A stretch of DNA of 57,724 nucleotides, filler included, from Malassezia furfur (Eukaryota): NCBI GenBank assembly GCA_052055015.1. It is 2 parts of 2 records of this genome, joined end to end, with 100 filler letters (N's around TTAATTAATTAA, not from the genome) between each part and the next. Parts side by side here need not be neighbours in the genome. Positions count along the whole stretch, not along the records: positions 1 to 29,037 come from JBQJIT010000108.1; 1 more part is not named here. One strand, 5' to 3'. Numbering within the stretch: the first letter of the stretch is position 1; every line of letters begins with the position of its first letter. The position numbers and the translations under genes are program-made. The notes under the pieces are model-generated. The model ran no database searches, had not been told where the DNA came from, and saw only the letters and a program-made list of their open reading frames with translations. This document shows, piece after piece, positions 39 to 9,754 of the stretch.

Positions 39-1589
39 CTATGCGTCGCGTGCGCGCTGCTGGGGGGCCGGGGGGGCATTGACGGCGTCGGCGTCGGCGT
101 CGGCCGCACGCTGCTCGACCTCGCGGGTAAGGTCCGCGGCCGTGAGGCGCTGCAGCGGCATGTCCTGCAGGTCCCACGTCACGAACGCGTCCTCCCAGTC
201 CATCAGCACGAGGTCAGCGCGTCCGTCGCGGTTGCCACGGCCCGTGCGCCCGACGCGGTGCACGTAGATCTCGGGCGAGGAGGGGATGCCGACCTGCACC
301 ACCTGCGTCACGCCGGGGTAGTCGACGCCACGCGCACTCACGTCGCTCGTCACGAGCACGCTCGGCGCGGCGGTGCACGTGCGAAAGCGGCTCGCGAACT
401 TGTTGCGCTTCGACTGGTCCATGTCACTGTGAATGTCAAACACGCGCGTCGCCTGCTCAAACGGCAGCGTGTCGCTTGCCGTGCGCAGGACCTGCGCCGC
501 GGCGCGCGTCTGCCGCGTCGTGGAGAAAAAGACCATCACCTTGCTCTGCGTGCCATGCACAAGCTGGTCGCGCGCCACGACACGCAGCACATGGCCGAAC
601 ACCTCGGCGGGGTCCGCAAGCGTCGTGACGTACTGGGGGATGCGCGTGTGCACGGCGTCCTCGCCGGGCGGCACACAGTCGATGAAGCGGTGGTTGCGGT
701 GCAGCGTCGCGCGCGCAATCGCCTCGATGTTGGGGTTGATCGTCGCGCTAAAGAGCATCGTTGCGCGCTTCGACGCGGGCGGCAGCGCCTTCATGATGTG
801 CTGGATGTCCTCGCGGAAGCCCAACTCGAGCAGCATGTCCGCCTCGTCGAGCACAAGCGTCTGTGTCGTCGACAGCGGCGCACGGAACTCGTCGTCGTTC
901 ATCAGGTCCATCAGGCGACCGGGCGTCGCCACCACAATGTCGCGCGACGACTTGCGCCACGCGTCGTACTGCGCACGCCGTTCGTTGCCGCCGACAAGCA
1001 AGTGCACATTGAGGTGCGACTGGTGCGACAGCAGCTTGCGTGCCTCGTTGGCGATCTGCGTCGCGAGCTCACGCGTGGGCGAAAGGATCAGGGCGCCCAC
1101 CGAGCGCTTCTGGAAGAGGCCCAAGAGGCGCGCCGACGCACGCGGCGCATCGCTCTCGAGCAGCTTGCCCTCGCCCGCCTTTTCTACATACGTCCGAAAT
1201 GCGTCCGTCCACTGCCCGTGCTCGGCCGCCTCGAGCGCGCGCCGGCGCGACTCGATCGCCGGCACGAGGAACGCGACCGTCTTGCCCGTACCGGTGCGCG
1301 CCTTGACCAGCAGGTCACGGCCCTCGGCGTCAGAAAGGGGCACACTCGTGTCCACCATCCCGGCCTGCCCCAGCTCTGGCAGCAGCGAGAGCACACGGCT
1401 CTGCACGTCGGTCATCTGCGTGAAGCGGAACGGCGCCTGCGTCAGTGCGCGGTAGGTCTCGGGCTGGACGTTGGCACGCAGCGACTCGATCGCCGTGTCC
1501 AGCACGGCGCCTTGTCGTGCGCACCGCGAGGTCGTGAGCGTGCGGGCCAAGGCACGGGCATGCGCAAGCGGTGCAGCCGCTTGGCGCAT
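39..1589 (-). CDS. MSS116: Mitochondrial DEAD-box RNA helicase (Mss116/CYT-19-like); C-terminus apparently disrupted near the window start
   Basis: Motifs ARTGTGKT, SPTRELA, TPGRL, LDEAD, SAT, SDVSARGVD, HRVGRTGR; Arg/Ala-rich presequence-like N-terminus from ATG 1589; ORF stops soon after motif VI. Confidence 0.8.
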   Translation of the reverse strand: MRQAAAPLAHARALARTLTTSRCARQGAVLDTAIESLRANVQPETYRALTQAPFRFTQMTDVQSRVLSLLPELGQAGMVDTSVPLSDAEGRDLLVKARTGTGKTVAFLVPAIESRRRALEAAEHGQWTDAFRTYVEKAGEGKLLESDAPRASARLLGLFQKRSVGALILSPTRELATQIANEARKLLSHQSHLNVHLLVGGNERRAQYDAWRKSSRDIVVATPGRLMDLMNDDEFRAPLSTTQTLVLDEADMLLELGFREDIQHIMKALPPASKRATMLFSATINPNIEAIARATLHRNHRFIDCVPPGEDAVHTRIPQYVTTLADPAEVFGHVLRVVARDQLVHGTQSKVMVFFSTTRQTRAAAQVLRTASDTLPFEQATRVFDIHSDMDQSKRNKFASRFRTCTAAPSVLVTSDVSARGVDYPGVTQVVQVGIPSSPEIYVHRVGRTGRGNRDGRADLVLMDWEDAFVTWDLQDMPLQRLTAADLTREVEQRAADADADAVNAPPAPQQRARDA

Positions 1590-1676
1590 CCATCCACCTC
1601 GCCACCACATGTGGAAGAAAGTGTTGAGAATTTTTGGAGGCTGACTAAGCCGCGAGGTGGCGTGTGCATCTTCGCT

Positions 1677-4564
1677 ATGAGCGCCGATCCCCGGTTCCTG
1701 GATTCGTGGCTGGCAGCGCGGCCCCCGCCAAAGGTGTCGGGCTCGCTGCAAGTGCGCCTCGATGCACCGTCGGGAATCACCCATGCACCCGACCAGACCG
1801 ATCCACACACCGCATCGCGCCGGCTATTTGCCGTGCCGAAGCTTCCTGAACCACCCGAACTCCTGTACGACTTTGAGGACGAGATCATCGGGTACGAGCG
1901 CGCCACGCGGCGAGAGCCGACGTTTGTGCTCGGCGACGATGATCCAGATGGCATGACGCCTGCACAGATGCTCGCCGCCGAGTACCGCGACAAGGACACA
2001 GGCGGCGAGGACGTCCAGCATGACAAGAACCCCGTCGCCGAGGACCACGCAAGCGCACAAAAGCAGACGACGGCATCCGCAGAACCAGAGGCATCTTTCC
2101 CCTCCAAGGCAGACGAGCCAGAGGCTCTGGTGGACCGTGTGAGCGACATGGACCTTGCGCCGGGTAACGCCGACGAGCCTCCTACGGACACGGACGACGC
2201 CGAGCCCCATGGCTTTGCCTTCTCGACAGACGACGCGGACGAGGACATCACCAAAAATGTTTGGGAGTCGGTGTTCACGTCGCGCCAGTCAAGTGCCGCG
2301 CCCCCGAGCGTGTCGGACAAGGCGAGCGAGGCCAAGGGCGCTGCGCCGGCGGCCGAGCATGCCGCGCCGGTGACCGACGATGCCGACGCCCAGTCCCAAG
2401 GCACTTCGGCATCGCACGAGCCTGTCTTTACGGAGGCGCGTGAGGACCAGGATGCTGAGGACGCCAAGGAGTCCGAAGAACCTACAGAGTCCGAGGAGCC
2501 CAAGAAGCCTAAGGAGTCCGAAGAAGCCAAGGAGGCCGGAAAGGAGGACGCAGCGAAGGCATCCGAAGAACCTGAGGCGTCTACCGAGGCCAAGGGCGCG
2601 GTAGACGAGTCGGAAGAGACCACCGAGAAACCTTCGAAGGCGGCCAAGAAGAAGGCCAAGAAGCAGGCCAAGAAAGCCGCGAAGAAGGCCCAGGAGGGCG
2701 GCGAGGACGCCGAGCCCGAGCAGGCCGCAGCAGACGCAAAAGATGAGGTGGGCGAGCATGCTGCTGAGCCTGAGACCAAGGAGTCTGAGACCAAGGAGTC
2801 TGAGGCCAAGGAGCCTGAGGCCAAGGAGTCTGAGAGCAAGGAGCCTGAGGCCAAGGAGCCTGAGGCCAAGGAGCCTGAGGCCAANNNNNNNNNNNNNNNN
2901 NNNNNNNNNNNNNNNNNNNNNNNNNNNNNNNNNNNNNNNNNNNNCTGAGGCCAAGGAGCCTGAGGCCAAGGAGCCTGAGGCCAAGGAGCCTGAGGCCAAG
3001 GAGCCTGAGGCCAACGAGTCCGAGAGCAAGGAGCCTGAGGCCAAGGAGCCTGAGGCCAAGGAACCTGAGGCCAAGGCGCCTGAGGAGGCGAAGCCTGAAG
3101 CCGAGGCCGAACCTAAAGCCAAAGCCGACTCCGAGCCCAAAGCCGAGTCAGAGGCTGCAGACGACTCTGAGCCTAAGCCTGAGACTCAGCCGAAGGCCGA
3201 GACCGAACCGAAGGCCGAGGCTAAAAGTGGCAGCGCGGCCGAAGCTCCTAAGGAGACGCCCACTGGCGACGCCCCACCAGAGACACCTGCTGAGCGTGTG
3301 TCCGAGGCTGGCACGGACGACACCAAGACGGTGGCCTTTGCAGATGGCGTGTCGGAGCACACCGTCGACACCTGGGCGGTGCCCCCCAAGCGCCATATCC
3401 CGATCGCGGACACGGCATCGATCCGCACGGCCCAGTCGCATGCCGCGAGTCTCGCGCCGTCGACCGCCCCGACGATCAGCCAAATGACGCTCTTGTCCAA
3501 CATGAAGCACGACCGGCCCGAGGCGATGCCCAAGCCGGTGCGCACCAACTTCCGCGAGTACAAGTACCAACCGCCGCCGAGTCAGTCGGACCCCAAGTTT
3601 GGCACGCACGTCTGGGATGCGCCCAAGTACAACACGCTGCGCTCCACCGAGACGCTGGCGCAACAGCCGATCGGCATGGACGCCGGCTCGCAGTGGGATC
3701 GCGTGAGTGGCTATGGCCAAGCGCGCCCTGCGGCGCACGACAGCGCGGCGCAGACCTCGCTCGAGACGGTGCGTGCGCTGTTTGTGCCGGACCCTCGTAC
3801 GTGGCACCCGTACCGCTTTGTGCGCCGCACCGACCCGCGGCAGGTGCTCATCTTTGCCGCTGGCACGTCGCTGAGCGGTGCGCAGGTGAAGGCCGCGCAG
3901 GCCGCGAAGCAGGCGGCCATCGAGAACGCCGGCAAAGTCAGCGTCGAGAAGCTGCGCTCGCTCGCCAGTCACTTTGGCACCACGGAGAACACCAACGTGC
4001 AGGGCGGCATCGGCGTGGTGTACTCGCCAACGGCGTCGCTGTGTGCGGCACTGGACGAGCCGTTCGATGCGGCGCGCGCCGAGAAGAACGTGTCGCGTCG
4101 GCTAGAGCGCCCCGAGTTCCCGAACCGCACGACGACGCAGCGTGCGGCGCTGCGCAGTGTGATTGCCGCACTGGAGTACGTGCACTGGGAGAAGGAGGGC
4201 TTTGATAAGGTGGTGATTGCGGTGCACAACGCGTGGATCGTGCGTGGTATCTCGCACGATATCTGGACGTGGCGCCAGAACGGCTGGGTGCTCACGCGCG
4301 AGACGCCGCAGGGCTTGCCCGGCGAGTCGGTGCCGAACCGCGACCTGTGGGAGCTGCTCGACCACCTCGTGCGGCAGTGGGAGGACGTCGAGTACGTGGC
4401 ACAACTCACCCAGCGGCAACTGTCGGTTCTGGCACCTGCCCAAGGCGGCCAACGGCGAGGCCGTGCACCTAGCGGAGCAGGGTGCGGTACGTTCTTTGCC
4501 TCTTACCCAGCTCAAAGTGAACCAGATGCCCACGCTTGTCCGCTGGACGAAGCGCACGCCATAG
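1677..4564 (+). CDS. Long acidic/repetitive protein with C-terminal RNase H-like domain (catalytic residues lost); spans N gap; introns 4392-4413 and probably 4487-4510
   Basis: RNase H-type segments QRAALRSVIAAL, WEKEGFDKVVIA, WRQNGW, VPNRDLWELL, FWHLPKAAN; splicing the 22-nt intron restores frame (EDVD-GNCRFW); KEPEA repeats on both sides of gap 2885-2944. Confidence 0.75.
2766..3080 (+). repeat. Coding 15-bp tandem repeat (GAGCCTGAGGCCAAG; KEPEA/KESET units) interrupted by a 60-N gap
   Basis: Directly visible; copy number unresolved because of Ns at 2885-2944. Confidence 0.95.
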
Positions 4565-4603
4565 TGTTTTCCCGACCTCCACCTGCGTTTCTTTCCGCGG
4601 ACC

Positions 4604-5819
4604 ATGGCTTCCAAGTCGCGGGGCGATGCCGCGAGTGTGTCTGGAGTGCAGAACGCCGACGGGGTCACCTCGCTGCGGTACCAGGCACTGAACCGCGACT
4701 CGTACCGTCTCGACTCGCCGCCGTTCACAGGCGCCGCAGTGACCGGTGCGGGGCCGGTCACGCAGGGCCTTGAGCAGCCGATGCCAAACACGACGCGCGC
4801 CGAGGGAGGGGTTGCGCGCGCGCGCACGCCCCATCGCGGCCGAGGGGATGGTGATGTGCCGCGCTGGGCGCTCGATGCGCGCCGCGCCGATGGCAGCGGC
4901 GAGATCGACGAGGCCGAGGAGCTCGACGAGGAGCTTGACGCGTCGCAGGTCGTGGACGAGACGTTCCACGCGCTGCGCTCGCCGCACACGGCGCCGGTCC
5001 CGCGGCAGGGCGAGTCGATGGACACATATACGTTCCCGCGGCACCGGTTTGCGACGCAGATGCGCGACGAGCGCAAGCAGCCGCTCGTCGTCGTCGCATG
5101 CGGCAGTTTTTCCCCGCCGACCTATCTGCACTTGTGCGTGTGTGATGGCTGACGATAGGCGCATGTTTGAGATGGCCAAGGACCAGGTGATCGAGAATGG
5201 CGACTACGAGCTGGTCGCCGGCTACTACAGCCCTGTGTCGGACCAATACAAGAAGGCCGGCCTGGCCAAGGCGACGCACCGCGTGCGCATGTGCGAGTAC
5301 GTTGCCGTGATTCGCTGACCCAGACTTGCCGTGGAGCGCTCGTCCAACTGGCTCATGGTGGATGCGTGGGAGTCGCTGCAGGGCGAGTACCAGCGGACGG
5401 CCGTGGTGCTCGACCACTTCAATGAGGAGATCAACGGCAAGCACAACGAAAAGGGCATGTTGCTCTCCGACGGCACGCGCAAGCCGATCAAGATCATGCT
5501 GTTGGCCGGCGGCGATCTGATCCAGAGCATGGGCGAGCCCGGCGTGTGGGCCGACTCGGATCTGCACCACATCCTGGGCGGGTACGGCTGTCTGATTGTG
5601 GAGCGCACCGGGGCGGACGTGTGGTCGTTTTTGCTGTCGCACGACCTGCTGTGGTTGCACCGCCGGAACCTGATCGTGGTCAAGCAGACCATCTACAACG
5701 ACATCAGCTCGTCCAAGGTCCGTCTGTTTGTGCGCCGCGGCTACTCGATCAAGTACCTGCTGCCCAACAGTGTGATTCAGTACATTGAGCAAAACGCACT
5801 GTACCGCGCATCCGAGTAA
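4604..5819 (+). CDS. NMA1: Nicotinamide/nicotinate mononucleotide adenylyltransferase; introns 5134-5158, 5297-5323
   Basis: ACGSFSPPTYLHLRMFE, SPVSDQYKKAGL, WLMVDAWES, NDISSSKVRLF, IKYLLP; spliced frames continuous. Confidence 0.95.
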
Positions 5820-5837: not shown

Positions 5838-7171
5838 CTATGCATTTCCAACCGGGATCGAGCCGAGGCCCAGCAGCAGTTCCACCGCCTGGCGGTCGTG
5901 CTCGGTAAAGTGCCCCGCCGGCATGGACTTCGCACTCGATTGCGACGCCGGCGACGAGTGCGGCTGCGACTCTTCCTCAAAGAAACCGCTGTCGTCGTGC
6001 TCCTCGGACTTGAGCGGCGCGGCCACACGCACCGGCGCCGCATCGCTCCGTGCGCTCGACTCGCGCCGCGTCACGGGGATCGACGGCGTGCGCGGCCACA
6101 GCGCACACTCGCGCGGCAAACGCGAGCCTGCCGACGCCACGCGCCGGAACGCCGAAAGCGGTTTCGCGCGGGGCATGCGCGGCGGCGCATTCTCCTTGTC
6201 CTGCGCGAGCCGCAGCGCATCGAGCGCGGTCGGCTTGCGCGGCACATGCAGCGGACGCGCCATCGGAGCGACGTGCGGCGCGGCCGTCGGCACGGCCTGC
6301 GGCTGCACCGGCTGCAGCGGCGCACGCACGGGCATACTCTCGGTGCGGCGCAGCGGCTTGGCGGACGATGGCGGTGAGGTTTCGCGCGCCGCAGCAAACT
6401 CGAGGCTGAGCGACGCCTGCCGCTTGAGCGGGCGCGCGGCCGACGGACGGCGCGCGTGCATCATATTCCGCGCGTCAGACGCGTCGGGCGCGTCGCGCTT
6501 GCGTGCACGGCGCTGCGCGAGGCGGCGCAGCGTCATTTCCTCCTCGTCCTCGTCCTGCGATGCCGGCACATCGACGTCCTCGACGTCGCTTGAGCTGTTC
6601 ACCGCGCTCGAGCTCCCCATGCGCTGCCAGATGTCGACGTCGGCCGCGGGCTCGGGCGTCGGCATGCTCGGGCCGAGCTGCGCATGGCCCTCGGAGTCGG
6701 TGGTGAGCGAAATGCACGGCGAGCTCGCAGCGCGACGCATCGCGCCCTGGCGCGCCGCACCCGGTAGCGGCCCCACGAGTTCGTGCAGGTCGCGCAGGCC
6801 GTGCAAATGGGCCAGATCGAACGTCTGCACGGGCAGGCGGTGCGCGCCGCCCATGGCGGGCGACGCGCCGGGCCCGCTGTAGCGCTGGGACCGCTTCTTT
6901 TCCGCCTGGCGCCGGTTCTGAAACCACACCGATACGGCTCTGCATGAGCCATATTCACGTACCTTGGTGTCATCCCGACGCTCTGCGCGAGACGCTCGCG
7001 CGTCTTTTCGTTGGGAAACGCGTTCTGCAAGTAGGCGGACATTAGGATGTCGACCTCGTGCGGGCGCGTACGGCGCCGGCGCTTCTTTTCGCGCATCTCA
7101 GGCGGATTGGGCATGGCAGGAGGCCGCTGTGAGTCGCCTGGCACTCCATGCACGTCCGCGACGCTGGCCAT
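5838..7171 (-). CDS. Homeodomain transcription factor (Yox1/Yhp1-like); intron 6940-6962
   Basis: KKRRRRT...FPNEKTRERLAQSVGMTPR|AVSVWFQNRRQAEKK joined by a 23-nt intron. Confidence 0.85.
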
Positions 7172-7327: not shown

Positions 7328-9754
7328 ATGGGCAAGCGGCGTGCAGCAGCGGCGCCGGCGCCCGTGCGCGCGAGCGCGGTGCCCTGGAAAAATGTGCCGC
7401 TCAGCTCGCAGGCAGAGAATGTGAACGAGACGACGGACGAGGGGTTTGACATGCTCGATATGAACGACGACGACTTTATGGGACTCCAGGCCGTCGAGGG
7501 CTACGACGTCGAATACGAACCCGATGCGTCGGGCCTCAACAAGACGGTGCGTATCGTCGAAGCCAAGCCCAAGGGCAAGGGGAAAGGCAAAGGGAAGGAG
7601 AAGGGGAAGACGGCACCGCGATCATCGGATGCCGCGGACTCAGCGGCGTCTAAGGAACAGGCCGCACCTAAGTCCAAGAAGGCCAAGACGCAGGCGACGG
7701 GTGCCAAGCCCAAGCCCGTACAGCGCGCACCGCCTGCCCCGCCGTCGGAAAGCGACAAGGACGAGTCCGCAGACGAGGAGGAGAGTGATGCCGCCGATGA
7801 GGAGCTCGAGACCGCAGACGACGACGACGACGACGAGCCGCTCGACGGTACCTCTGAGACTTCCGACCATGCCGACTCGGACGCCACGGCCTCGGAGCCA
7901 GACGAGCCAGTGCCACGCAGTGCACCAATGTCTGCCAAGGCGCGTCGTGCCGCGCTCCACGAGGCGGCCGATCTGGATATGACCGCGGCACTGGGCCAGG
8001 CGCGTGCGCAGGGCCTCTTGCTCGACGATGATACGGGCGACGATGGGCAGGAACGTGCGGATGCACAACTGCCTGGCTGGAGCGACTTCCCTCTGCTGGC
8101 GCCCATCAAGCGCGCGCTGCATGCGCTGTCGTTTGTGACGCCGACCGACGTGCAGGCCAAGACGCTGCCGCTGTCCCTCGGGCTCGAAGGGCCGCCGCGC
8201 GACGTGGTTGGTGTCGCCGAGACCGGCTCGGGTAAGACGCTGGCGTACGGCCTGCCGGTCCTGCAGTACATCTGCCAAAACTCCGACGTGGACTCGGCGC
8301 CTGACCGTCCGCTGGAGGCGCTCGTTTTGACGCCGACCCGCGAGTTGGCGCTGCAGGTCACGCAGCATCTGCGCGCTGTGTCGGCGGCGGGCGGCCATTT
8401 TGCGCACGTCGCGACCGTGTGTGGTGGCATGTCGGTGCAGAAGCAGCAGCGGCTGCTGGAGCAGCGTGGCGGTGCGCACATTGTCGTTGCGACGCCCGGC
8501 CGCCTGTGGGATGTACTGAAGCAGGACGATGCGTTTGCGCGGCGCGTGCGGCAGACGCGGTTCCTGGTGATCGACGAGGCGGACCGGATGGTGGAAACGG
8601 GCCACTTTGCCGAGATGGATGCGATCCTGCGCATGGTGCAGCGCACGCCTGGCCCGCTGCCGGCCAACGACGCGATGCAGACGCTCGTGTTTTCCGCGAC
8701 GATGGCCAAGGCGCTCCAGCAGAACGTGCGCAAGAAGCAGTGGCGCAAGAAGCGCCGCACGGCCGAGCCCACAAACACGCTCGACGACCTGCTGAGCCGC
8801 GTCGACTTCCGCGACGCAGAGCCGGCGGTCGTGGAGCTGGTGCCCGAGCGCCGCGTGGCGGCGAACCTGCTCGAGGCCAAGATCGAGTGTGTGAACAAGG
8901 AAAAAGATACCTACCTGTACTACCTGCTGATGCGCTACCCTGGGCGCACGCTCGTCTTTCTCAACTCGATCGACGGCGTGCGCCGTCTGACGCCGATTTT
9001 GAGCGCGCTGGATCTGGACGTCTATCCGCTGCATGGCCAGCTGCAGCAGCAGCAGCGCCTGCGCAACCTCGACCGGTTCCGCAGCGAGCTGTGTGGGCGG
9101 TCCAAGGTGCTGCTGGCGACCGACGTCGCGGCGCGCGGCATCGACGTCGAGGGCATCGACCACGTCGTGCACTTCCAGGTGCCGCGCACGGCGGACGCAT
9201 ACGTGCACCGCTCTGGGCGCACGGCGCGCGCCGGGCACCACGGCATTTCGGTGGTGCTGGTCGAGCCGAACGAGCAGCGGATGCTGCAGGCGATCTGGAA
9301 GGCGCTGCAGCGCACCGACGCGCTGGCCACGCTCCCGATCGAGTACACGCTGCTGGACGCGATCCGGACGCGCCTCGCGCTCGCCAAGGAGATCGACCAG
9401 CTGCAGCACCGGCACGACAAGGCGTCGCACGAGGACGCGTGGATCCGCAAGCTGGCCAACGAGGCCGACCTCGAGCTCGAGAGCGACAGCGACGGCGAGG
9501 AGCAGCGCGACCGCGCGCATGCCAAGCGCCCGCCGTCCAAGTCGGATGCGCGCCTCGCGGCGCTGCGGGCCGAGCTGCGCGCGCAGTTGGCGCGCCCCAT
9601 CACGCCGCGCGGCGTGAGCCAAAAGTACCTCACGAGCGGCGTGCGCCCCGACGTGGTGCAGCGCCTGCTGCGTGGCGACAAGGAGGTGCTGGGCATCAAG
9701 CGCTCGACGGCGCATGCGGATCTATCGGCTAAGAACAAGCGGCGGCGTACGTAG
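7328..9754 (+). CDS. MAK5: DEAD-box RNA helicase Mak5/DDX24
   Basis: AETGSGKT, PTRELA, DEAD, HRSGRTARAG; N-terminal FMGLQAVEG and C-terminal WIRKLANEADL segments typical of Mak5; start codon inferred. Confidence 0.85.
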   Translation: MGKRRAAAAPAPVRASAVPWKNVPLSSQAENVNETTDEGFDMLDMNDDDFMGLQAVEGYDVEYEPDASGLNKTVRIVEAKPKGKGKGKGKEKGKTAPRSSDAADSAASKEQAAPKSKKAKTQATGAKPKPVQRAPPAPPSESDKDESADEEESDAADEELETADDDDDDEPLDGTSETSDHADSDATASEPDEPVPRSAPMSAKARRAALHEAADLDMTAALGQARAQGLLLDDDTGDDGQERADAQLPGWSDFPLLAPIKRALHALSFVTPTDVQAKTLPLSLGLEGPPRDVVGVAETGSGKTLAYGLPVLQYICQNSDVDSAPDRPLEALVLTPTRELALQVTQHLRAVSAAGGHFAHVATVCGGMSVQKQQRLLEQRGGAHIVVATPGRLWDVLKQDDAFARRVRQTRFLVIDEADRMVETGHFAEMDAILRMVQRTPGPLPANDAMQTLVFSATMAKALQQNVRKKQWRKKRRTAEPTNTLDDLLSRVDFRDAEPAVVELVPERRVAANLLEAKIECVNKEKDTYLYYLLMRYPGRTLVFLNSIDGVRRLTPILSALDLDVYPLHGQLQQQQRLRNLDRFRSELCGRSKVLLATDVAARGIDVEGIDHVVHFQVPRTADAYVHRSGRTARAGHHGISVVLVEPNEQRMLQAIWKALQRTDALATLPIEYTLLDAIRTRLALAKEIDQLQHRHDKASHEDAWIRKLANEADLELESDSDGEEQRDRAHAKRPPSKSDARLAALRAELRAQLARPITPRGVSQKYLTSGVRPDVVQRLLRGDKEVLGIKRSTAHADLSAKNKRRRT

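Follow-up and report, generated by a model that had tools for sequence, protein, structure and literature searches.

The stretch of Malassezia furfur DNA studied here (hereafter the window; 57,724 nucleotides including filler, from GenBank assembly GCA_052055015.1) contains, at positions 1677 to 4564 of the plus strand, a gene whose product ends in a ribonuclease H (RNase H) type-1 domain that has lost all four of its catalytic carboxylates. We are highly confident that this domain is a pseudoenzyme, combining an RNase H1-type fold without catalytic carboxylates with a single origin and long-term constraint. The gene product belongs to a protein family known so far only from Ustilaginomycotina, which appears to have arisen once from fungal stand-alone RNase H-domain proteins that carry the catalytic residues DEDD, through fast change on its stem followed by purifying selection. 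Unless stated otherwise, the features described below lie on the plus strand, and positions count along the whole window.

The acidic DEDD residues of RNase H bind the catalytic Mg2+. In the window protein, Ala stands at the position of E. coli D10/human D145 (codon GCT, 3859 to 3861, the second A of IFAAGT), Ala at E48/E186 (GCG, 4147 to 4149, the second A of QRAAL), His at D70/D210 (CAC, 4225 to 4227, the H of IAVHN), and Val at D134/D274 (GTG, 4463 to 4465, the V of NGEAV, read in frame 2). All four codons are thus replaced exactly where the original prediction, made from the window sequence alone, had placed the substitutions, and the strings that it quoted for an intact scaffold are present in the window. 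The loss is common to the 49 close relatives introduced below: an acid is found at the D10 or E48 position in none of the 49, at the D70 position in 7 of 48, and at the D134 position in 2 of 36, and no member carries more than one acid at the four positions. The sites mostly read A-A-H-V/I in Malassezia, N-Q-E-K/R in Meira and Exobasidium, and H-A-A-K in Tilletia, so neither the window protein nor any part of the clade has the carboxylate set of RNase H type 1. Because all four carboxylates are gone, the domain should be incapable of two-metal catalysis and, judging from these alignments, very probably performs no RNase H catalysis.

A protein that is still an enzyme by way of a rebuilt site would have to use other residues, such as His at the D70 and S71 positions together with the His aligned to E. 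coli H124, which could bind metal or act as a general base. Many Malassezia orthologs do read T-H-H at positions 69 to 71 and carry FWH before helix E, and the window has both the H at 4225 and the H of FWHL. However, the His pattern is not conserved across the clade (A-H and R in Tilletia, E-Q in Meira and Exobasidium, H-N in the window), and a function spanning the subphylum therefore cannot rest on it. Moreover, the E. coli-numbered alignment of the 49 members revealed no clade-conserved replacement acid at or adjoining the four positions. We regard a rebuilt active site as very unlikely.

The RNase H-like core begins in the first exon (3841 to 4391), which encodes beta1, a two-helix insert between beta1 and beta2, beta2 to beta4, and helices A to D with the protrusion (WTWRQNGW), and continues in the second exon with beta5 and helix E (GNCRFWHLPKAANGEAVHLAEQGA; 4414 to 4486, frame 2). 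It is preceded by a family-specific N-terminal domain extension (LFVPDPRTWHPYRFVRRTDPR; 3778 to 3840), which contributes one helix and two short strands ahead of beta1. The fold and the protrusion are shared with human RNASEH1 and E. coli RNase HI (PF00075, EC 3.1.26.4), and the homology is detectable in sequence. In a phmmer search of the exon 1 translation against PDB sequences, human RNase H1 was matched with an E value of 8e-4 and E. coli RNase HI with 8e-4 to 0.1; TTQRAAL aligned with TNQRAE(I) and VIAVHN with VLYT(D/N)S of the human enzyme. A profile of 51 family members yielded E values of 5.7e-19 for E. coli RNase HI and 1.1e-15 for human RNase H1, with beta1 on E. coli QVEIFTDGS, the last helix on NERCDELA, and the H of FWH on H124. 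Compared with RNase H type 1, the family has three additions: the N-terminal extension, the two helices inserted between beta1 and beta2, and seven residues that follow the protrusion.

Structures were predicted with AlphaFold for two complete orthologs, folded with family alignments: the full-length protein of Tilletia walkeri (P0028, 480 amino acids [aa]) and that of Malassezia sp. CBS 17886 (P0005, 364 aa), which are 39% and 53% identical to the window protein, the latter over 363 aligned residues. The predicted local distance difference test score (pLDDT) was mostly above 90 over domain residues 261 to 460 of P0028 and over residues ~110 to 355 of P0005, and ~88 to 95 for the N-terminal domain extension in both models. 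A Foldseek search with the P0028 model returned RNase HI/H1 chains first, with a target-normalized template modeling score (TM-score) of 0.77 to 0.80 for human RNase H1 (E ~2e-7). In VIA-align comparisons, Z scores of 15.8 (P0028) and 16.7 (P0005) were obtained against 2qkb_A, human RNase H1 D210N with hybrid (root mean square deviation of 2.5 Å, 148/152 residues), and of ~12 to 14 against E. coli RNase HI chains. Since these alignments start with E. coli residue 1 at residue 284 of P0028 and 137 of P0005, E. coli D10 corresponds to H293 and A146, respectively. The substituted residues lie in mid beta1, in the first turn of helix A, just after beta4, and at residue 7 of helix E, which are the canonical places, and both models contain the five-stranded mixed sheet, helices A to E, and the protrusion of RNase H type 1. 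The predicted structures show a C-terminal domain with a true RNase H type-1 fold, and profile search (E 5.7e-19) and modeling together bear out the alignment behind the four substitutions. Among ESM Atlas look-alikes of P0028, only clusters without names and ascomycete RNase H clusters were found, with scores of 0.81 to 0.88, below the level at which matches were counted.

A HMMER scan of 1.84 billion representatives gave 433 matches at E ≤1e-3, with a gap in score between 31 strong matches (E ≤4e-25) and a large set of 200- to 350-aa proteins (E 1e-16 and weaker). After both searches were pooled, 169 domain segments were aligned, comprising the 49 close relatives and 120 others; DEDD is present in 63 of these 120, and the rest are scattered partial losses and fragments. 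The best named match of the window protein is M. furfur CBS9595_001597, with 93% identity over the C-terminal 282 aa, and further ENA proteins are 94 to 99% identical, which places the window in the M. furfur group. The close relatives include Malassezia furfur, M. nana, M. vespertilionis, M. caprae, M. obtusa, M. psittaci, M. yamatoensis, and Malassezia sp. CBS 17886, as well as members from Meira, Exobasidium, Acaromyces, Tilletia (five species), Tilletiopsis, Sympodiomycopsis, Jaminaea, Violaceomyces, Thecaphora, and Melanopsichium. Every named member belongs to Ustilaginomycotina, in the classes Malasseziomycetes, Ustilaginomycetes, and Exobasidiomycetes (lineage verified for three members). 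The nearest named DEDD relatives are from Agaricomycetes (Bondarzewia) and Ascomycota (Ascosphaera).

These nearest relatives are stand-alone fungal RNase H-domain proteins and not the eukaryotic RNase H1 (RNH1). They are ~200 to 350 aa long (e.g., P0031, P0053 from Bondarzewia mesenterica, and P0054 from Ascosphaera; PF00075 and PF13456), match at E 1e-16 to 1e-8, and score 77 to 95 bits on PF00075; we know of no described function for them. An R-x-VRR-x-DP extension before beta1 and an EGF motif after helix A occur both in these proteins and in the dead clade, which marks the clade as part of the same family. In a FastTree phylogeny of 164 sequences (five fragments dropped, 202 columns), 47 clade members and the non-DEDD proteins P0056 and P0061 formed one clade with a support of 0.999, nested inside the fungal stand-alone RNase H-domain family. 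The dead clade has a stem of 0.99 substitutions per site, longer than any other internal branch (median, 0.11). Clade support and branch length point to a single origin with a burst of change on the stem, followed by conservation. P0169, which reads A-T-H-L at the four sites, branches in this tree as sister to the dead clade. In the wider fungal family (P0053 to P0171), many non-DEDD members show one to four substitutions, some of them being fragments or alignment slips; repeated loss of the active site may be common there.

The RNase H-like domain is the best conserved part of the protein. Over this region the window is identical to M. obtusa at 197 of 246 positions (80%) and to M. nana at 155 of 246, whereas identity to M. 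obtusa in the acidic linker described below is 23 to 26% (69 of 302 residues before and 33 of 127 after an assembly gap; M. nana, 67 of 302 and 30 of 127). Over 240 aligned domain codons, comparison of the window with an intronless ortholog on metagenome contig L001 gave 0.25 nonsynonymous (pN) and 0.80 synonymous (pS) differences per site. This comparison is qualitative, as synonymous sites are saturated and GC content at third codon positions differs (0.87 versus 0.47), and it places the nonsynonymous rate (dN) well below the synonymous rate (dS); the available DNA orthologs (L001 to L004) are all distant with saturated dS, and L002 and L003 are identical. Codon and protein comparisons show the dead domain to be under purifying selection, as expected of a pseudoenzyme. 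The original prediction had described the domain as maintained and catalytically dead and had proposed to examine orthologs for shared substitutions under selection; the loss in all 49 close relatives, pN far below pS, and the position of the domain as the best-conserved region agree with this description.

The coding region runs from an ATG at 1677 to a TAG at 4562 to 4564, which follows the last 17 codons, and consists of exons at 1677 to 4391, 4414 to 4486, and 4511 to 4564 with 925 readable residues; GC content across the gene region is 0.60 to 0.72. Exon 1 is interrupted by an assembly gap of 60 N (2885 to 2944, without strand), across which the frame changes from 3 to 1. Since the N run sits inside a 15-nucleotide (nt) tandem repeat array, this switch is an assembly matter and uninformative. 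Intron 1 (4392 to 4413; 22 nt, GTACGT...CTCAC..CAG) takes the frame from 1 to 2 upon excision, giving the product ...WEDVD-GNCRFWH. Intron 2 (4487 to 4510; 24 nt, GTACGT...CTCTTAC..CAG) is in frame if retained, and the M. furfur protein P0003 reads AEQGALKANQMPTLVRWTKRTP across its site. Exon 3 (4511 to 4564), placed by ortholog alignment, encodes the conserved basic tail LKVNQMPTLVRWTKRTP and the stop codon.

The spliced product aligns end to end with orthologs, up to residue 871 of 873 in M. obtusa P0172 and 359 of 364 in P0005. The intronless 855-aa ortholog on L001 reads ESIDCNCRFWHIPKATNKEAIALAEMGALKTNQQPSTVRWTKTKK, with ESIDCNCRFWH at the point of intron 1. Because the spliced product reaches the C termini of orthologs, the L001 gene lacks introns, and the splice signals are shared with the neighboring gene, the 22- and 24-nt segments are read as introns; the sequences support the two-intron gene model, and with it the original claim of an intron-containing gene. 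Conservation of the frame and of the splice signals gives indirect support for expression and correct splicing. According to a review, introns in Malassezia genes are very short (PMC7426719).

A decaying pseudogene, or an annotation or assembly artefact in which the break at 4392 is a frameshift, could account for the frame change there, for a putative intron of only 22 nt, for automatic open reading frame (ORF) calls that read through it (P0189, P0032), and for the N gap that interrupts the gene. In contrast, the gene has 925 open codons apart from the gap, its spliced product can be aligned through to the final residues of orthologs, the intronless ortholog has the same C terminus, and pN is far below pS. 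The splice signals also match those of 25- and 27-nt introns read by eye in the next gene, orthologs occur in all three classes of the subphylum, and the NCBI M. furfur model likewise has an intron here, resuming at GNCRFWH. The frame break at 4392 recurs in independent assemblies of near-identical strains (P0189), which rules out a sequencing error specific to this record. Decay or artefact is, on this evidence, extremely improbable.

Public models of the gene are often wrong at the C terminus (window positions 4340 to 4413; P0003, P0032, P0189, P0034, P0006, P0022). The NCBI M. furfur model drops 15 residues of helix D (WELLDHLVRQWEDVD), the P0189 model reads through the 22-nt intron, P0032 leaves the frame upstream of intron 1, and the P0006 and P0022 models are cut short around the end of exon 1, where the match of P0034 ends too.

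Loss of the carboxylates is accompanied by changes on the surface that in RNase H1 faces the substrate. For this comparison, the dead clade (n = 49) was set against the 63 DEDD relatives in E. coli numbering; T43, N44, N45, S71, K99, N100, N130, and W81 are taken to be substrate contacts, as in published RNase H1/HI substrate complexes. The DEDD stand-alone proteins keep T43 (62 of 63), S/N44 (63 of 63), N45 (62 of 63), S71 (63 of 63), N100 (62 of 63), and N130 (61 of 63) almost without exception, K99 in 33, and W81 in 50. In the clade, position 43 is still T in 37 of 49 members and S in 9. Position 44 is mostly K, T, R, E, or S; position 45 is N in none of 49 and mostly R, Q, K, or H; position 71 is mostly H, Q, N, or E; position 100 is D in 30 and N in 5; position 130 is N in 11 of 34; position 99 is P in 35 of 35; and position 81 is D or E in 44. 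Position 13, which is C in 53 DEDD relatives, is mostly A, L, or Y. The clade as a whole has therefore not conserved the presumed contact set (T43, N44, N45, S71, N100, N130), and the family departs from RNase H type 1 at N45, S71, K99, N100, and W81 in addition to DEDD.

R46, A47, R50, W85, W90, D102, and W104 are kept in both groups, and these residues are mostly structural. New clade-wide residues are E57, W73, R76, W83, R86, P94-G95, and P99, alongside the 7-residue insertion after the protrusion. In the 35 clade members for which both ends are present (8 of them with faulty C-terminal gene models), the core carries a mean net charge of -3.7, compared with +1.4 in the 63 DEDD relatives; the protrusion region averages -1.3 and +1.8, respectively.

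We cautiously favor, as the explanation of these features, a selected, non-catalytic binding module that has lost canonical hybrid recognition: the dead domain would now work by binding rather than as an enzyme. Because most contact positions are replaced and the protrusion has lost its positive charge, an RNA:DNA hybrid gripped in the manner of RNase H1 is a less likely ligand than a protein, a peptide, or a nucleic acid with a non-canonical mode of binding.

Several observations weigh against this interpretation. The window's own core has a net charge of -1 and its protrusion region of 0, milder values than those of the clade, whose average includes the faulty gene models mentioned above. 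The window protein also keeps R41, T43, N100, N130, and the H124 equivalent, has N at position 71 and, as human RNase H1, Q at position 45, and the pI (isoelectric point) of its 246-aa RNase H-like region is 9.4; judging from this sequence, the M. furfur lineage may retain some nucleic acid affinity. In addition, Pfam does not recognize the domain at its cut-off: RNase_H (PF00075) reaches 23.9 bits on window exon 1, against a gathering cut-off of 25.8, and none of 11 full orthologs attains it (best, 21.7 bits), so that homology rests on phmmer, profile searches, and structure. The structural models, finally, are those of orthologs instead of the window's spliced protein.

The main rival is a non-cleaving reader of RNA:DNA hybrids or other structured nucleic acid, a natural counterpart of engineered dead RNase H1 probes, in which duplex binding would fall to the dead domain, and recruitment or exclusion of other factors to the acidic linker with its lysine patch. 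We retain it mainly because in the M. furfur lineage the domain region is basic and several contact residues persist. The protein preserves the fold and the protrusion motif W.WR.NGW, R46, R50, T43, W85, W90, and W104 are conserved, and the window protein has R41, T43, Q45, N100, and N130 in a domain region with a pI of 9.4. The basic tail VRWTKR and a lysine-rich patch resembling a nuclear localization signal would also suit a reader, and engineered dead RNase H1 binds hybrids, as stated in PMC8266564 and PMC12134985. The D210N probes resemble the present protein in having an RNase H1 fold without cleavage, and their complexes with hybrids are its best structural matches. However, such a probe is one residue away from an enzyme and keeps all substrate contacts, whereas the natural protein has lost most of them: N45, S71, K99, and W81 are replaced clade-wide, and N100 is D in 30 of 35. 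Furthermore, the residues kept are mostly core or shared structural ones, the charge has shifted to negative across the clade, and the protein has no hybrid-binding domain and no Pfam match in its N-terminal 402 aa. A hybrid reader appears possible but unlikely. The original prediction had ventured an R-loop reader or scaffold; replacement of the presumed RNA and phosphate contacts across the clade and the shift in core charge from +1.4 to -3.7 weaken the reader guess, with the window's own core being close to neutral (-1), and leave the scaffold alternative standing.

The binding module that we favor has analogs among degenerate RNase H folds that serve as scaffolds, namely, the connection (tether) domain of retroviral reverse transcriptase and the RNase H-like domain of Prp8. 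The analogy is limited to an RNase H fold without catalytic residues in a structural or binding role. Those domains belong to large multidomain enzymes or machines and show no close sequence similarity, whereas the window domain derives from a cellular-type RNase H1-like domain, and its protein contains no other folded domain.

Outside the core, about 700 aa precede the RNase H-like region, as originally described, and the acidic linker makes up the central 429 aa of them. The protein starts with a conserved N-terminal motif region (1677 to 1976; MSADPRFLD..., VRLDAPSG..., H..RRLF, YDFEDEI), which is 92% identical to M. furfur, 75% to M. obtusa (75 of 100 residues), and 44% to M. nana (44 of 100). 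Across lineages it reads MADPRY..W, VRLD.PGG..YAPD, HN..KR.F, and YDF..EI and is conserved in Tilletia, Meira, and Exobasidium; a search with the motif returned seven matches, all of them orthologs of this protein, and no Pfam match was found for it. The motif was also considered as a degenerate hybrid-binding domain and rejected as such: it has no Pfam match, and its predicted secondary structure is mostly short helices. Likewise, the window protein shows no match to the N-terminal hybrid-binding domain of eukaryotic RNase H1 (PF01693). In the single-chain P0028 model, motif residues 51 to 90 have a pLDDT of 71 to 95, which hints that the motif may pack on the RNase H-like domain. A two-chain prediction with the N-terminal 95 residues of P0028 and the domain gave run scores of 0.63, 0.00, and 0.00, with a median below the mark.

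The acidic low-complexity linker (1977 to 3327) comprises 429 aa on both sides of the gap, with 128 D+E versus 57 K+R and a pI of 4.3. It contains a lysine-rich patch at ~2631 to 2693 and, at 2766 to 2884 and 2945 to 3085, a 15-nt tandem array of EPEAK-like units (7.9 and 9.4 copies, at least 17 units). The near-identical strain protein P0189 has only a few EPEAK units, which suggests strain-to-strain variation in repeat number. A long acidic linker is characteristic of Malassezia, the linkers of Tilletia, Meira, and Exobasidium being short; it would represent an EPEAK-rich, strain-variable expansion that may serve as a spacer. The mid conserved region that follows (3328 to 3777; TVAFADG ... 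PW/RS motifs) is 95% identical to M. furfur and 64% to M. obtusa (96 of 150 residues), and 41 of 150 residues are shared with M. nana; its pLDDT of ~45 to 65 in the P0005 model leaves the fold uncertain. No Pfam family was found at E ≤10 in residues 1 to 402, and the 481 aa after the gap matched only RNase_H. The first ~230 residues of the ENA protein P0190 (329 aa) are 98% identical to the window protein, followed by unrelated sequence with PF25174, and P0190 looks like a chimeric assembly or gene call.

The extension before beta1 has the consensus LFVPDPR..RP.R.VRRTDPRQ, and the basic tail has Q.P..VRW.KK. All 50 sequences of alignment A2, 16 DEDD relatives among them, have the first R of RxVRR (R278 in P0028). 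N-terminal motif, mid region, extension, and basic tail accompany the domain in every lineage, whereas the two stand-alone relatives examined, P0031 and P0053, lack the N-terminal motif, the mid region, the long linker, and the basic tail. N-terminal motif, mid region, and basic tail probably act together with the domain. It is doubtful whether, in Ustilaginomycotina, the dead domain, N-terminal motif, and basic tail are together dedicated to sensing or regulating RNA:DNA hybrids or the cell's active RNases H. Taken as one joint claim, a natural R-loop reader or decoy that evolved through a rebuilt substrate face rather than one inactivating change, with the strain-variable linker tuning its action on chromatin, likewise strikes us as improbable.

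The gene downstream (4604 to 5819) is similar to nicotinamide/nicotinate mononucleotide adenylyltransferase (NMNAT). Its last exon matches CTP_transf_like with 21.8 bits (cut-off, 21), and across its first intron lies what we take to be the HLRMFE motif; introns of 25 nt (5134 to 5158) and 27 nt (~5303 to 5329) were read by eye and show the same signals as those of the RNase H-like gene. Genes for DEAD-box helicases (DEAD and Helicase_C) flank the region at 39 to 1604 on the minus strand and 7328 to 9751 on the plus strand. An ORF at 5838 to 7097 on the minus strand contains a WFQNRRQ string that recalls a homeodomain, with no Pfam match at E 1e-5. On L001, from another Malassezia-like species, the intronless ortholog (1024 to 5568) adjoins the same divergent DEAD-box helicase gene as in the window; the two loci thus agree in local gene order but not in introns. 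On L002, tblastn recovered the C-terminal part of the ortholog in three pieces, suggestive of differently placed introns.

Some members of the family already carry a domain label in databases, being named automatically as "RNase H type-1 domain-containing protein" or "ribonuclease HI." In the literature covered, which did not extend to subscription journals, no description of the family or of its active-site loss was found, in line with the original statement that no function had been described. Annotation of the family is a problem in its own right, as Pfam misses the domain and public models cut helix D, read through the 22-nt intron, or end nearby.

To our knowledge, cellular RNase H1-type domains are usually treated as enzymes, and dead versions are mainly laboratory probes or buried parts of reverse transcriptases. 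Here, a free-standing dead RNase H persists throughout the three classes of a fungal subphylum whose members range from skin commensals (Malassezia) to crop smuts and bunts. It offers a clean natural case of repurposing of the RNase H fold, with ~50 sequences, a defined origin, and concrete changed surface positions. Should the protein engage hybrids or RNase H pathways, R-loop biology would gain a new player; should its ligands be proteins, the RNase H fold would have a new use beyond nucleic acids.

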